Source: a virus (Duplodnaviria > Heunggongvirae > Uroviricota > Caudoviricetes). Taken from it: a stretch of 41,687 nucleotides of DNA. Position 1 is the stretch's first letter. The number at the start of each line of letters is the position of its first letter. This document shows positions 15,262 to 20,186 of this stretch, piece after piece. The DNA is taken from the IMG/VR virus record IMGVR_UViG_637000104_000001, one strand, 5' to 3'. The position numbers were made by a program, and so were the translations under genes. The notes under the pieces are model-generated. The model was not told the DNA's origin, ran no database searches, and saw only the letters and a program-made list of their open reading frames with translations.

Positions 15262-16344
15262 TTAGAACTGATAAACCAGACCTACAGCGACGATGTCGTC
15301 GGTATCAATACCAGCTGTTTTGGTAAACTTACTATCGTCAATTAAGTTGATTTTGTAATCAACAAAAGTGGACATGTTTTTATTAAAGTAGTAAGTAGCA
15401 CCGACATCGACATACTTGACTAAGTCTCGGTCACCATGAACACCAAGGTCTTTACCTTTTGACTGAAGGTAAGCAACAGATGGACGCAGACCGAAGTCAA
15501 ACTGATATTGTGCTACTGCTTCAAAGTTTTGTGCTTTGTTTGCAATATGGTTATTACCAAAAACGGTCATATTCTGAGTTTCAGAATATGTGGTAGCCAG
15601 ATAGATATTGTTCGCATCATATTTCAGGCCTGCAGCCCATACTTCCGCATTTTTGCCGGAGGCATTGAATTTGCTCTTACCATAGGCGACCTGACCGTCA
15701 GTGCGATCTGATTTAGCATAGGTTGCACCCACGCCGAATCCTTCATACTCATAAGTAGTGGAGAAACCGAAACCATCACCATTGGCTTCAGTTACGTCAG
15801 TGCGGTCATTTTTACCCTGATACTGAGCAGCAAAGTTCAGGCCATCGACCAGACCAAAGAAGTCGTTGTTACGATAAGTTGCAACACCAGTAGTGCGACC
15901 AGTCATGAACACATCTGTTTGGGTCCAGGTATCACCACCGAATTCTGGCAGAACGTCAGTCCACGCACCGATGTCGTATGCTACACCGTAGTTACGGCCG
16001 TAATCGATTGAGCCGTAATCACCAAATTTCAGGCCTGCAAATGCAAGACGGGTTTTGTCTTTGGAAGAACCTTGAGATTCAGCACGGTTGCCTTTGAATT
16101 CATATTCCCACTGACCGAAACCAGTCAGTTGATCGTTGATTTGGGTTTCACCTTTGAAGCCAAGACGGGCATAAGTAGTATCACCATCATCTGCATCATT
16201 AGAGGAGAAGTAGTGCTTGGCATTAACTTTCCCGTATAGATCCAGCTTGTTACTGTCTTTATTATAAATTTCAGCTGCCTGAGCAGACATCGCCATCAGT
16301 ACTGATGCAGCTACAGCAGAAATTGCCACTGTTAATTTTTTCAT
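15262..16344 (-). CDS. nmpC: OmpC-family general porin (NmpC/OmpD-like), 360 aa
   Basis: Signal peptide [30 protein letters not shown] start of the mature protein, C-terminal VGLVYQF beta-barrel signature. Start taken at internal ATG 16344 (the ORF-track start 16404 is upstream of the signal peptide). Confidence 0.9.
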
Positions 16345-16770
16345 TGTACGCCCTTTTTTTGAACTATTATTAAAAAATGATGTCACTGCGCGATAAATAT
16401 TCATCTAATCAATGTGATTATTTCAAGATGTAAGTTTTAGTTTCTCATTTAATTTGTGAAGTAGATCTCTATTTTTATCGGAACCTTTTCTATCTAATCC
16501 TATTCATGGCTCTTGTCTGAACAAAAATAAATCTATTAGCTAATTTATATTAATGGCACTTATTTATAAGTGCTCTATAATTCTTTAGCTTAATTTAAAC
16601 AAACTAAAAATAACATCGGAAATTATTAACTGGTTATTTGTTGAAGTTTTCTTATGCATTTGTGGTGGTGTTTTGAACACTCGGTGGCATTCTCACAAAT
16701 ATCATTTAGTAGTTTACGTACGTAAAAAATTGGTTATGCTGTTAAGAGTGGTTACTTCGTCACACAGCTT

Positions 16771-16803
16771 AAACCCGCCGTCGAGCGGGTTTTTCCATTT
16801 TTT
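16771..16803 (+). terminator. Intrinsic terminator upstream of the lysis genes (candidate tR', target of Q antitermination)
   Basis: Hairpin ACCCGC-CGTCGA-GCGGGT followed by TTTTCCATTTTTT; a perfect TATAAT at 16576-16581 lies about 200 nt upstream (candidate pR' -10). Confidence 0.5.
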
Positions 16804-16932
16804 GAGTCTCGATATTAGCTGATAACCCAATACCTGAGTTATTCACTGACTCCGAATCTGTTACGTTTCTGCCTTTATTGCGATACGTAGTATCCCCTTA
16901 ATTTACACCCGCTTTGTCTGCGAGGTGGGGTT

Positions 16933-17148
16933 ATGAAATCCATGGATAAGTTAACAACGGGTGTCGCCTATGGTACCTCAGCAGGTAGTGCCGGGTACTG
17001 GTTTTTACAGTTGCTCGATAAAGTCACGCCCTCACAGTGGGCGGCAATAGGTGTGCTGGGTAGCCTGGTATTTGGCCTGCTGACGTACCTGACAAACCTT
17101 TATTTCAAGATTAAAGAAGATAAGCGCAAGGCTGCGAGAGGTGAATAA
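16933..17148 (+). CDS. S: Pinholin (phage 21 S21-type), dual-start motif
   Basis: 71 aa; [26 protein letters not shown]..., two TM domains; Met1/Met4 dual start as in S21-71/S21-68. Confidence 0.9.
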
Positions 17149-17645
17149 TGCCTCCATCATTACGAAAAGCCGTTGCTGCTGCTATTGGTGGCGGAGCAAT
17201 TGCTATAGCATCAGTGTTAATCACTGGCCCAAGTGGTAACGATGGTCTGGAAGGTGTCAGCTACATACCATACAAAGATATTGTTGGTGTATGGACTGTA
17301 TGTCACGGGCATACAGGAAAAGACATCATGCTCGGTAAAACGTATACCAAAGCAGAATGCAAAGCACTCCTGAATAAAGACCTTGCCACTGTCGCCAGAC
17401 AAATTAACCCGTACATCACAGTCGATATACCGGAAACAACGCGCGGCGCTCTTTACTCATTCGTTTACAACGTGGGTGCTGGTAATTTCAGAACATCGAC
17501 GCTTCTTCGCAAAATAAACCAGGGCGATATCAAAGGCTCATGTGATCAGCTACGTCGCTGGACATATGCTGGCGGTAAGCAATGGAAAGGTCTCATGACT
17601 CGTCGTGAGATTGAGCGTGAAATCTGTTTGTGGGGTCAGCAATGA
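17148..17645 (+). CDS. R: SAR endolysin (lysozyme with N-terminal signal-arrest-release domain)
   Basis: Gly/Ala-rich weakly hydrophobic N-terminus [20 protein letters not shown] followed by a lysozyme domain; ATGA-type overlaps with S and Rz. Confidence 0.9.
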
Positions 17646-18103
17646 ACAGAGTAACCGCGATTATCTCCGCTCTGGTTATCTGCATCATCGTCTGCCTGTC
17701 ATGGGCTGTTAATCATTACCGTAATAACGCCATTACCTACAAAGCCCAGCGCGACAAAAATGCCAGAGAACTGAAGCTGGCGAACGCGGCAATTACTGAC
17801 ATGCAGATGCGTCAGCGTGATGTTGCTGCGCTCGATGCAAAATACACGAAGGAGTTAGCTGATGCGAAAGCTGAAAATGATGCTCTGCGTGATGATGTTG
17901 CCGCTGGTCGTCGTCGGTTGCACATCAAAGCAGTCTGTCAGTCAGTGCGTGAAGCCACCACCGCCTCCGGCGTGGATAATGCAGCCTCCCCCCGACTGGC
18001 AGACACCGCTGAACGGGATTATTTCACCCTCAGAGAGAGGCTGATCACTATGCAAAAACAACTGGAAGGAACCCAGAAGTATATTAATGAGCAGTGCAGA
18101 TAG
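17642..18103 (+). CDS. Rz: i-spanin Rz
   Basis: N-terminal TM segment, coiled-coil periplasmic domain; start ATG 17642 overlapping the R stop. Confidence 0.85.
17862..18044 (+). CDS. Rz1: o-spanin Rz1 (lipoprotein embedded in the +1 frame of Rz)
   Basis: Lipobox LVVVGC, proline-rich mature peptide ([15 protein letters not shown]); entirely inside Rz. Confidence 0.85.
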
Positions 18104-18134
18104 AGCTGCCCATATCGATGGGCAACTCATGCAA

Positions 18135-18428
18135 TTATTGTGAGCAATACACACGCGCTTCCAGCGGAGTATAAATGCCTAAAGTAATAAAACCGAGCAA
18201 TCCATTTACGAATGTTTGCTGGGTTTCTGTTTTAACAACATTTTCTGCACCACCACAAATTTTTGCTGCATCGACAGTTTTCTTCTGCCCAATTCCCGAA
18301 ACGAAGAAATGATGGGTGATGGTTTCCTTTGGTGTTACTGCTGTAGGTTTGTTTCCAACAGTAAACGTCTGTTGAGCACATCCTGTAATAAGCATTGCCA
18401 GAGCGGCAGAAAACAACATTTTTTTCAT
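18135..18428 (-). CDS. bor: Bor outer-membrane lipoprotein (serum-resistance-associated), 97 aa
   Basis: MKKMLFSAALAMLITGCAQQTFTV... lipobox; matches remembered lambda Bor; start taken at internal ATG 18428. Confidence 0.88.
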   Translation of the reverse strand: MKKMLFSAALAMLITGCAQQTFTVGNKPTAVTPKETITHHFFVSGIGQKKTVDAAKICGGAENVVKTETQQTFVNGLLGFITLGIYTPLEARVYCSQ

Positions 18429-18908
18429 CTTATTATCCTGCATTGTTAAAAACGGCAGAATCCTATGTGACAACAATTAAACGATAGTTAAATGGATTGA
18501 TGAAAATTAAAACTACACAGGTGGGCTCAGACTATTGGAGGAAGTTGGGGACACTCAGAATCCTGTGGAATGAAATAAACCGGTCTATCCGTCCATTACC
18601 CTTTTAGCTGCGCTGTATCGTCGCCGTATTCCCGCATTAACCATGACCGTAGCCCGACGGGGAATTCCTTCTGCGTGAGTGTGCGGGAATAATTAAAAAC
18701 GATGCACACCGGGTTTTTACCGCGTTAATGATTCGCGGGTTTATCCCGGTGCGATGGTGGAAGAAACAGGAAGCTGTATTACAGAAAGTGCTACTACTGT
18801 ATCCCGATGCGATGTATGTAATGTGAGTCAGATAATGGCACAGGATGTGGTGATGTGGCAGTCTGGAACACAGGATATATTGTCAGAATAAGACCCGTAG
18901 GAATAAAA

Positions 18909-19235
18909 ATGAAAAGACGCCTTTTACTACTTTTTCTGTTATCTGTCCTGGCAGTGGGATGCTCGCAGCAAAAAGCTGATGAGCCCCGGCAATTAGTGAC
19001 GGTGTATCCACGATATCCGGAATATGCTGCAGCAAATTATATCAAGGGGCTGGTTGAGGTTAAGTTCGATATTGGTGCTGATGGGACTGTGACACGGATC
19101 GTTTTTCTCCGCTCAGAGCCTCATAATTTGTTTCGTGATGAAGTGGTGAAGGCCATGGCGAAATGGCGATTTGAAAAGAATCGCCCCTGTCAGGGAGTGA
19201 AGAGACAATTTATCTTTACGCCGTCACGTCCTTGA
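18909..19235 (+). CDS. Lipoprotein with TonB C-terminal-like domain, 108 aa
   Basis: Signal peptide plus lipobox (LLSVLAVGCS); the mature region resembles a TonB-C fold (VKFDIGADGTVTRIVFLRS...). Start at ATG 18909. Confidence 0.55.
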   Translation: MKRRLLLLFLLSVLAVGCSQQKADEPRQLVTVYPRYPEYAAANYIKGLVEVKFDIGADGTVTRIVFLRSEPHNLFRDEVVKAMAKWRFEKNRPCQGVKRQFIFTPSRP

Positions 19236-19357
19236 TGCTTCCAGATAGAGAGGGGCTGGAAGCAGGAGAAAAATGAAAGAGCCAGCGGTTATATTTTTGT
19301 CATGGCTGACGAGGAATGATGGAAGAAGGCGTTGTATGCCACACAACGCCTCACTGT

Positions 19358-19537
19358 TCATTTCTTCTTTTTCTCTGGTGGAACCCGATGAATAAGAGTT
19401 GCACTGGTTTCCGATGAGATGGCGATATACTCGGGCAAAGTATGCTGGCAGTTTTCCAACTGGTCAAAAATACCTGCTCTCGTCTGTTGCAATGCCTGCA
19501 GCATGCGGCGGCAATGTGCCTTGCTTTTACTAACCAT
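19358..19537 (-). CDS. Hypothetical small protein (59 aa from the Met with AGGAAGG RBS)
   Basis: Internal start of ORF 19358..19711 preceded by a good RBS; basic C-terminal tail. Confidence 0.35.
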   Translation of the reverse strand: MVSKSKAHCRRMLQALQQTRAGIFDQLENCQHTLPEYIAISSETSATLIHRVPPEKKKK

Positions 19538-19598
19538 CTTTCCTTCCTCTATCAGTCGCTGCGTGAACTCATCATGGAATACCAGGTAAATGCGGATG

Positions 19599-19850
19599 TT
19601 ATCGGTTTTGGCTACGCAGCATAGTACAAAACGGGCAGGTGCATCCCGGGACGGGGGAGGCGTCACATGTCCCTGTGATGGTTGTTCCGGGTAATGTACT
19701 GTGTGGGGCATAAAAATGTCCGATAATTTTACTTTCTACCGCAGTTAGTTGATTCGTTGGTCCTGGTAGCACATTGGGCGAGGATTTAAATGCCAGGCAA
19801 CTGAAGGATGATGTCGCAAGGGAGATAGCGAGAATATTTCTGATTTTCAT
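19599..19850 (-). CDS. Small secreted Cys-containing protein (83-aa precursor with signal peptide)
   Basis: MKIRNILAISLATSSFSCLA signal peptide; C-terminal TGTCDASPVPGCTCPFC cysteine cluster. Start at internal ATG 19850. Confidence 0.4.
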   Translation of the reverse strand: MKIRNILAISLATSSFSCLAFKSSPNVLPGPTNQLTAVESKIIGHFYAPHSTLPGTTITGTCDASPVPGCTCPFCTMLRSQNR

Positions 19851-19998
19851 TTGATGATGCCTCTGTGTGAAATGACGGTAAACGACGCACTTGTGCCGGC
19901 ACATAATAGCAAGCACCATAATAGATCAGATTCGATTCTTGCTGTAAGTGATAATTATTCTCGTTTTCGGGTCCTTTCCGTCGATCCAACAGGTTACG

Positions 19999-20010
19999 GG
20001 GCGGCGACCT
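19999..20010. other. cos: cosN cohesive-end site (GGGCGGCGACCT) with flanking cosQ/cosB
   Basis: Sequence ..CAGGTTACG|GGGCGGCGACCTCGCGGGTTTTCGCTATTTATGAAA matches the lambda genome termini; Nu1 starts 177 nt downstream. Confidence 0.9.
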
Positions 20011-20186
20011 CGCGGGTTTTCGCTATTTATGAAATTTTTCCGGGGAAAATCATGTCGGTACTTCTCGAACATAACTATTTGTTTTTTCTAATATCGAATC
20101 CGTAAAAGGTCCGACATGAAAACGCCTAAAAAAGTCATTTTCGGGCACTTTCATGTCGGACCCTGTATTTATTGTGAGACTGTTTC

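Follow-up and report, generated by a model that had tools for sequence, protein, structure and literature searches.

Within a 41,687-nucleotide viral sequence (IMG/VR record IMGVR_UViG_637000104_000001; this whole stretch is called the window below), positions 18135-19850 form the right-end cargo ("moron") region of an Escherichia coli lambdoid prophage of the phage 21 type. The region type, the variable cargo of lambdoid right ends, is already known, and so is iss/bor as cargo at this site. Two further genes lie beside it: one encodes a lipoprotein with the C-terminal domain of TonB (the TonB-like lipoprotein), and the other, here called cys83, encodes a small exported protein whose mature part has four cysteines. 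Both are real, selected and uncharacterised cargo genes.

Over positions 9785-41687 the window shared 99.9% identity with a prophage that E. coli strain M-17 carries integrated beside icd, and 2.1 kb around the cargo region was matched at 100% in many RefSeq chromosomes. The window from 16932 to 19998 was 97.8% identical to the right end of phage 21 (OL657228), whose last base is the equivalent of position 19998. An earlier sequence-only reading had placed four open reading frames (ORFs), three of them bearing export signals, between the lysis cassette and cos. The location was correct, with Rz ending on the left and cosQ and the cohesive end following on the right (Table 1). All four ORFs were present, and the signals were borne out for Iss, the TonB-like lipoprotein and cys83. 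Because the products of all three validated genes carry export signals, the cluster is no random collection of ORFs. The same reading called the stretch visibly AT-rich. The direction was right and the effect is mild: the guanine-plus-cytosine (GC) content is 45.2% at 18135-19850, 48.8% in the lysis genes, 55.9% in the structural genes and 50.9% in the whole window.

Table 1. Features of the cargo region and of its right limit, by position in the window.
Feature	Position	Strand	Basis or remark
Hairpin GAGCTGCCCAT-atcg-ATGGGCAACTC	18103-18128		Inverted repeat between the convergent stops of Rz (18103) and iss (18135)
iss/bor, Bor-family outer-membrane lipoprotein, 97 amino acids, lipobox I-T-G-C17	18135-18428	-	Pfam, PHROG, RefSeq, phage 21
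Conserved non-coding backbone block, about 165 nt (about 165-180)	18610-18772	+	Sequence matches, alignment
TonB C-terminal-domain lipoprotein, 108 amino acids: signal peptide, lipobox A-V-G-C18, short linker, equivalent of TonB 150-235	18909-19235	+	Pfam, phmmer, AlphaFold2
Hairpin AGGCGTTGTATG/CACACAACGCCT	19327-19351		Inverted repeat between the convergent TonB-like gene and the cys83/59-amino-acid ORF unit
59-amino-acid basic ORF, downstream of cys83	19358-19537	-	ORF listing; phrog_4843
60-amino-acid ORF (RefSeq WP_000881607; phage 21 CPT_21_75)	19442-19624	+	Overlaps the 3' end of cys83; weak Shine-Dalgarno sequence
cys83, unannotated gene, 83-amino-acid precursor: signal peptide 1-20, mature protein of 63 amino acids	19599-19850	-	Homologs, purifying selection
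Candidate extended -10 promoter element TGCTATTAT for cys83	19903-19911	-	Consensus match alone
Fur-box-like AT-rich element GATAATTATTCTCGTTTTC	19950-19968		15 of 19 consensus positions, best in the window; abuts cosQ
cosQ (GGGTCCT)	19969-19975	+	Equals annotated phage 21 cosQ, 42902-42908
cosN cohesive-end sequence GGGCGGCGACCT	19999-20010	+	Right limit of the cargo region; matches phage left ends

A lipoprotein with a TonB C-terminal domain

The TonB-C-like domain named in the sequence-only reading was recovered by profile, sequence and fold comparisons alike. The protein scored 49.2 bits against Pfam TonB_C (PF03544; cut-off 24.6) and 47.4 bits against TIGR01352 (cut-off 27.1), and its residues 23-103 matched positions 150-230 of the NCBIfam TonB profile. 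A phmmer search of the PDB aligned it without gaps to solved structures of E. coli TonB (E 1e-14). Over about residues 150-230 of E. coli TonB, 32 of the 80 aligned residues (40%) are identical, residue n of the lipoprotein corresponding to TonB residue n+127. An AlphaFold2 model built from six homologs has the alpha-beta-beta-alpha-beta topology that TonB's C-terminal domain has. When this model was compared with the PDB by Foldseek, the top 13 matches were all C-terminal domains of the TonB family (probability 0.91-1.00), among them TonB bound to BtuB and to FhuA. The fold check suggested by the sequence-only reading therefore gave a TonB-C-like fold. Besides the gapless identity and the predicted topology, the lipoprotein shares with the TonB domain the YP motif (Y163-P164 in the ungapped alignment to TonB), an aromatic core, with F180, F202, W213, Y215 (as Phe) and F230 kept, and a hydrophobic beta3 strand (QFIF, against NILF in TonB).

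By its sequence the protein is a TonB domain and not a TonB. Profiles of full-length TonB equivalogs (NCBIfam, PRK10819) gave 45-69 bits against cut-offs of 265-448, only their positions from about 150 to 240 being matched. The inner-membrane anchor and the proline-rich rod of TonB are missing, and in their place this phage-borne protein has a lipoprotein signal peptide at its N-terminus (MKRRLLLLFLLSVLAVG-C18, with Ser at +2). Because it lacks the anchor and the rod, it cannot transduce energy.

The product is 100% identical to CPT_21_73 of phage 21. A second allele, with 67-72% protein identity and the lipobox kept, fills the same slot of another lambdoid backbone (lysozyme, Rz1, gene, DUF3950 gene, HNH, Terminase_2) and was also found in Stx1a phages. 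Between the two alleles the proportion of differences at non-synonymous sites (pN) was 0.16, that at synonymous sites (pS) was 0.63, and the ratio of the corresponding rates (dN/dS) was 0.14, so the gene is maintained by selection.

A possible decoy in TonB-dependent uptake

The sequence-only reading had guessed that the lipoprotein interferes with TonB-dependent uptake, and by analogy a role as a decoy that damps such uptake is plausible. Periplasmic TonB fragments comprising residues 33-239, 103-239 or 122-239 inhibit the TonB system, as cited in bioRxiv 10.1101/2020.01.05.895219, which also names competition for the transporters or interference with the ExbD-TonB contact as possible causes. 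Since exported TonB fragments inhibit the system, an anchorless TonB domain lying under the outer membrane is a credible decoy. With Ser at +2, the lipoprotein would by the usual +2 rule be sorted to the outer membrane and sit on its inner face. In that place the beta3 strand would occupy the TonB boxes of TonB-dependent transporters, or the protein would bind ExbD. Less TonB-dependent entry of phages, colicins and microcins would follow, at some cost to siderophore uptake.

The nearest analogues of such an action are the FhuA-blocking phage lipoproteins Cor (phi80, N15, HK022) and Llp (T5). These small phage-encoded outer-membrane lipoproteins disable a TonB-dependent receptor pathway and so protect the host (PMC11436027; PMC9586334). 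Cor and Llp target FhuA alone, whereas a TonB-domain decoy would hit the shared TonB box or ExbD, and so all TonB-dependent transporters. The TonB-like lipoprotein has no homology to Cor or Llp and matched neither the Cor families of PHROG nor any PADLOC model; the sole PHROG Cor match in the region was the Iss signal peptide (E 0.13).

Several points weigh against the decoy. Confidence in the AlphaFold2 model is modest, with a predicted local distance difference test (pLDDT) score of 61 overall and 63-79 in the core. Residues Q160 and R166 of TonB, implicated in contacts with the TonB box and FhuA, are both Tyr here, and the last four TonB residues are missing, the protein ending at the equivalent of residue 235; TonB-box binding could therefore be altered or lost. 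The inhibitory fragments of the literature are longer than the domain here. The gene lies on the strand of the late transcript and may therefore be made mainly in lytic growth and not in the lysogen, and a constitutive TonB blocker would be costly for siderophore-dependent strains. No tested function for this lipoprotein was found in the literature, the PADLOC models or the PHROG annotations.

The protein might instead be a structural envelope protein, for example one touching peptidoglycan or the outer membrane, or a lysis accessory of the late transcript, with no blocking of TonB. We think this quite unlikely. The position of the gene just past the lysis cassette on the late strand would fit it, as would the two replaced TonB residues and the label of its family, phrog_1267, which is 'Rz-like spanin'. 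That label probably arose from the position and the lipoprotein signal. A spanin assignment was rejected, because a complete Rz/Rz1 pair is already encoded at 17630-18103 and 17862-18044 and the lipoprotein is TonB_C, not a spanin, by sequence and predicted fold. In strain LR-31, moreover, the gene lies apart from the lysis genes, behind an unrelated gene.

cys83, a missed gene, and its family

cys83, which the sequence-only reading called as a gene, is absent both from RefSeq, annotated with the Prokaryotic Genome Annotation Pipeline (PGAP), and from the curated phage 21 record, whose positions 42535-42783 are identical to it in sequence. With a word-indexed search, 22 relatives of down to 55% identity came from Escherichia, Citrobacter, Klebsiella and Salmonella, and almost every one has 82-84 amino acids. 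About 20 further small proteins came from a profile search of 1.84 billion representatives. Full-length homologs from these searches extend to 27-55% identity. Ten of the proteins added by the profile search have source names and extend the range to Enterobacter, Serratia and Pantoea, and a genome scan, which gave 3 genome loci, extended it to Buttiauxella. The family thus occurs in at least 8 genera of Enterobacterales with members of about 80 amino acids, and every named relative is called 'hypothetical protein'. Compared with the Klebsiella and Salmonella copies, cys83 has a pN of about 0.2 and a pS of 0.67-0.84. The Cys-rich ORF of the sequence-only reading is thus borne out as a gene by full-length homologs and by pN below pS. 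To judge from these comparisons, cys83 is a genuine gene under purifying selection and a member of an unannotated Enterobacterales family. Its ribosome-binding site, GAGG, lies 9 nt ahead of the ATG.

Of 5426 complete E. coli genomes, 1222 (about 22%) have the gene, Nissle 1917 and ST131 among them. It also lies on 72 plasmids, of which most are large conjugative ones of Klebsiella.

In an alignment of 28 sequences C62, G69, C70, C72 and C75 are invariant, and A20, F21, G60, P66, L78 and R79 nearly so. The mature protein has exactly four Cys in the pattern C-x7-C-x-C-x2-C, within which stands P-V-x-G-C-x-C-x-F-C. At its end the signal peptide has a site for signal peptidase I, C/A-L-A↓F (C-L-A↓F here; the arrow marks the cut). 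We considered Cys18 as the lipobox Cys of a lipoprotein and rejected it: distant members have A-L-A↓F-Q with no Cys, and Cys18 is the -3 residue of the signal-peptidase I site. No family or structure match to cys83 was found in Pfam, NCBIfam, PHROG, PADLOC or the PDB.

Two further proteins from the profile search (P0041 and P0043) are long, low-complexity and eukaryote-like, and contain 4-5 repeats of P-[IL]-P-G-C-N-C-P-K-C-T-x-L-R. The repeat is a short motif of the conserved C-terminus of cys83, and neither protein has a Pfam family above cut-off.

Neighbours and Zur-box-like sites of cys83 relatives

The relatives of cys83 occur as a stand-alone unit in many contexts, most of which concern metal homeostasis and zinc especially. 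In Pantoea the homolog stands with genes for a ThrRS paralog, a hexapeptide protein, FolE2 (GCHY-1), a DksA paralog, CobW, a Fur-family regulator and a CysRS paralog, which we take to be the usual make-up of a zinc-starvation island. CobW lies 143 nt upstream of the homolog in a metagenomic locus (L152), and Klebsiella plasmids have CobW and a Fur-family gene beside it. The neighbours on the K. pneumoniae chromosome are a ZnuA/ABC-3/ABC transporter operon, ALAD and an amidohydrolase; in Enterobacter and Klebsiella sp. they are Band_7 genes and a P-type ATPase, in Citrobacter the genes of a FecI/FecR/TonB-dependent receptor system, and in Serratia an SBP_bac_5 ABC transporter. In Salmonella subspecies the homolog lies in an islet with a PPC-domain protein, followed by bor, omptin and effector genes (a NEL effector and a serine-protease autotransporter). 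No counterpart of the 59-amino-acid ORF or of the TonB-like gene was seen beside cys83 outside E. coli in the loci examined.

Band_7 genes lie beside the cys83 homologs of loci L147, L152 and L153; a P-type ATPase accompanies them in L147 and L153, and CobW does so in L152. Zur-box-like sites are present in the L152 and L153 clusters. Clusters of this kind may be an undescribed zinc-regulated transport module.

Regions up to 260 nt upstream of the relatives were scanned with the published 23-bp Zur-box consensus (PMC4219657) and a structure-based pattern, TGWNAYRWTATAWYRTNWCA, with 18 specified positions. Zur-box-like sites matching 15-17 of the 18 positions were found at 7 of 15 cys83 loci, namely those of Citrobacter, Buttiauxella, Serratia, K. 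pneumoniae, Pantoea, L152 and Klebsiella sp., all of them chromosomal members. Each of the seven ranks best or second-best within its own 8-10 kb locus, and only 0-18 of 400 dinucleotide shuffles of the upstream regions reached such scores. The Enterobacter copy has no Zur-box-like site, and its gene looks operonic with the ATPase gene.

Neighbourhoods and sites together point to the cys83 family as part of the Zur-controlled response to zinc limitation, from whose control the mobile copies, that of the prophage included, would have escaped. The precursor would be exported by Sec and cut after Ala20, leaving a small periplasmic protein that handles zinc with its four Cys; zinc binding by these residues would be the simplest mechanism. 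As the prophage copy has no Zur-box-like site, the lysogen would gain an additional copy that zinc does not repress. In being small and exported, cys83 resembles ZinT and PliG, two periplasmic proteins of the Zur regulon, and its chromosomal relatives stand, with Zur-box-like sites, in surroundings like the zinc-starvation islands around COG0523/CobW. It has no similarity in sequence or structure to ZinT or PliG, its candidate ligands are four Cys and not His, and the phage copy differs in lacking the Zur-box-like site.

Other observations speak against a zinc role. The neighbourhood evidence is associative, and in Salmonella the companions of cys83 are bor, omptin and effector genes and not metal genes. 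No Zur-box-like site was found upstream of the copy in the window (12 of 18 positions), the Salmonella copies or the Klebsiella plasmid copy. The periplasm is oxidising and Cys ligands are unusual there, so that two disulfides in cys83 are equally possible. AlphaFold2 gave no confident fold (pLDDT 58, predicted template modelling score 0.21).

A disulfide-bonded protein that acts on the host is the first alternative to a zinc-handling one. Here cys83 would be a factor of host interaction or envelope defence, for example an inhibitor of a host enzyme, and would lie in Zur regulons because zinc starvation is a sign of the host environment, itself neither binding nor trafficking zinc. The periplasm favours disulfides, and the Salmonella islet, with its PPC-domain protein, Bor, omptin, NEL effector and autotransporter, would suit such a factor, all the more as cys83 and bor are ordered and oriented there just as cys83 and iss are in the prophage. 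There is also the precedent of PliG, a Zur-regulated periplasmic lysozyme inhibitor (PMC4219657), by which a Zur-regulated periplasmic protein need not handle zinc. Against this, cys83 has no similarity to inhibitor families or solved structures, and in at least 5 genera its neighbours are zinc-homeostasis genes proper (CobW, Fur-family, ZnuA-type, FolE2, the DksA paralog) and not defence genes. We regard the inhibitor as unlikely.

Very improbable is the toxin-like or signalling peptide that the sequence-only reading had guessed, in which the Cys-rich C-terminus would be freed as a disulfide-bonded peptide: the order of signal peptide, variable middle and conserved Cys-rich C-terminus is like that of pre-pro-STa, but C-x7-C-x-C-x2-C is unlike the STa and guanylin cores (NPAC / ACTGC), no similarity in Pfam, NCBIfam or the PDB and no confident fold was found, and members of the family are widespread among non-pathogenic Serratia, Pantoea, Enterobacter and Buttiauxella, the relatives lying in housekeeping metal-homeostasis neighbourhoods with Zur-box-like sites.

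Regulation of cys83 by Fur was judged weak. The Fur-box-like element abuts cosQ and lies about 40-60 nt upstream of the candidate -10 element of cys83, that is, upstream of the likely promoter core. The stretch that holds it, 19943-19998, matches records of the lambda family, phi80 and N15, at least some of which have no cys83, so a packaging role or coincidence is possible. Fur-like sites at the other cys83 loci reach only 10-13 of 19 positions. Between the cys83 and bor homologs of three Salmonella islets, Fur-box-like sites with 15-16 of 19 positions were seen (L005, 5340-5358; L011, 6342-6360; L012, 6605-6623).

The segment between the two convergent genes

Between the TonB-like gene and cys83, annotations differ. 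In RefSeq and in the phage 21 record, small ORFs are called on the plus strand at 19273-19395 and 19442-19624 (as well as at 18754-18891, to the left of the TonB-like gene), and the minus strand has the 59-amino-acid ORF. The latter has a strong, well-spaced Shine-Dalgarno sequence, GGAAGGAAAG, and is followed by the hairpin at 19327-19351; it could therefore form a unit with cys83. The hairpin is terminator-like in its sequence, with TTCTTCC next to it on the minus strand. Across 1222 copies, all at least 95% identical, polymorphism comprised too few changes to settle the coding strand at 19358-19624: 4 of 6 substitutions in the 59-amino-acid ORF and 3 of 3 in the 60-amino-acid plus-strand ORF are non-synonymous. 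Both the 59-amino-acid ORF and the plus-strand ORFs are putative as genes, and the plus-strand ORF at 19442-19624, lying over the end of cys83, is probably spurious.

The chances seem to us evenly divided as to whether 19236-19598 encodes any protein or is no more than a 3' untranslated tail with terminators, at which the transcripts of the TonB-like gene and cys83 converge. The searches gave no diverged homologs for the 59-amino-acid ORF, the members of phrog_4843 all being near-identical, and cys83 homologs elsewhere lack the segment. In strain LR-31 a natural 1-bp insertion breaks the reading on both strands, removing the first 11 codons of the 59-amino-acid ORF, and RefSeq switches there to a 48-amino-acid minus-strand ORF. 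These observations, with the disagreement of annotations over the strand and the mostly non-synonymous substitutions in both frames, argue for a non-coding tail. The Shine-Dalgarno sequence, the hairpin directly after the 59-amino-acid ORF and the survival of its 48-amino-acid core in the frameshifted variant argue for a gene.

Iss

The Bor identity given to 18135-18428 by the sequence-only reading was confirmed. The protein matched Pfam Lambda_Bor (PF06291) over profile positions 1-75 of 75 with 106 bits (cut-off 25; E 1e-30) and phrog_260 with an E of 4e-59, and in RefSeq it is named 'increased serum survival lipoprotein Iss' (WP_001298464). It is 100% identical to CPT_21_71 of phage 21 and 92.8% identical to lambda Bor. 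Its signal peptide, MKKMLFSAALAMLITG-C17, has a canonical lipobox. Lambda Bor and the Iss of ColV plasmids have the same lipobox, length and position after Rz, and no structural difference from the Iss here. The link of Bor to serum resistance, which the sequence-only reading took as established, calls for some caution: one avian pathogenic strain needed the plasmid iss for serum survival, and the chromosomal prophage allele of iss did not complement its loss (PMC4313913).

A conserved block between two cargo slots

The non-coding block between iss and the TonB-like gene has a sharp left edge at GCGCTGTATCGTCGCCGTATTCCCG and is better conserved than the cargo on either side. Sequences matching it come from 432 phage records, lambda among them, and from at least 104 IMG/VR contigs. 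Where bor is present it always ends 190 nt to the left (upstream) of the block, and where the TonB-like gene is present it always starts 290-318 nt downstream. From these fixed distances it follows that the block divides one cargo slot from another. It is followed by cosQ and cosN within about 100-150 nt in some phages.

In an alignment of 23 closely related variants, a plus-strand consensus structure of 35 pairs had 98.9% of its cells paired, against 28-60% in slid controls. The one-sided changes were G-U-compatible, and one hairpin showed an exchange of G-C for U-A. Folding of single sequences was unexceptional (z -0.6 and +0.28), and an Rfam search of the region gave no match at E up to 1. 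The block is a candidate for an undescribed structured RNA of lambdoid late transcripts. The record of HK629 annotates the matching stretch as 'promoter'.

Surroundings of the cargo region

The local gene order is antiterminator, an ompC-like porin gene on the minus strand, holin, lysozyme, Rz/Rz1, the cargo region, cosQ, the cohesive end, cosB repeats and the terminase genes. The hairpin at 18103-18128, placed as it is between two converging genes, is likely a two-way terminator for Rz and iss. Just to the right of the cohesive end, repeats of the type CATGTCGGAC, some of them inverted, lie at 20050-20167, where cosB sites for the small terminase subunit (R-site repeats) are expected.

The place of the porin gene (15262-16404), flanked by antiterminator and holin, is taken in phage 21 by two tRNA genes. 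Beside the porin gene, 16250-16850 is the most AT-rich stretch of the region, with a GC fraction of 0.28-0.34. A copy of IS100 at about 617-2573 lies within the integrase gene of the prophage, which may therefore be unable to excise. It is 100% identical over 1957 bp to the copy that interrupts the lysozyme gene of strain ECONIH2.

Lambda carries its right-end morons in the same place, from Rz to cos, and there too the conserved block is found upstream of bor. At the slot B position (block to cosQ) lambda has the ybcV-like p78 and the ybcW-like p79; in this respect the prophage here, with the TonB-like lipoprotein and cys83, is unlike lambda. The phage 21 genome paper describes the morons of phage 21 as unlike those of lambda and gives no function for them (PMC9119081).

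Discussion

The best explanation of the region as a whole, and one that we hold a little likelier to be right than wrong, is a phage 21-type right-end cargo region next to icd with two slots, a TonB decoy and a zinc-linked cys83. Slot A, from Rz to the block, holds iss/bor on the strand opposite to late transcription, and Iss would act like other Bor-family lipoproteins. Slot B, from the block to cosQ, holds the TonB-like lipoprotein on the late-transcript strand and the convergent cys83, possibly with the 59-amino-acid ORF, read from beside cosQ. To the points raised above against the decoy and the zinc role must be added that literature searches for the TonB-like lipoprotein, the Cys motif and the RefSeq accessions found nothing, and no experiment on the cargo proteins came to light. 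A more specific account is tentative and on the unlikely side: cys83 would found a Zur-response family, of which phage 21-type prophages (in about 22% of complete E. coli genomes) captured a member, freed it from Zur and paired it with a TonB-domain decoy.

Moron regions of temperate phages are known to supply genes for host fitness, the textbook example at this very site being Bor/Iss. cys83 is absent from RefSeq and from the curated genome of the classic phage, yet about one in five complete E. coli genomes and many large Klebsiella plasmids carry it. Annotation pipelines have called a doubtful plus-strand ORF here and missed the conserved gene on the minus strand. The link of cys83 relatives to zinc starvation is relevant to growth against the calprotectin of the host. 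The TonB-like decoy, if it acts as proposed, would give a prophage a novel means of closing an entire class of entry routes (T1, phi80, colicins, microcins), whereas the known exclusion lipoproteins block a single receptor. If both proposals hold, a temperate phage would reshape the metal uptake of its host as well as its sensitivity to TonB-dependent phages, colicins and microcins.

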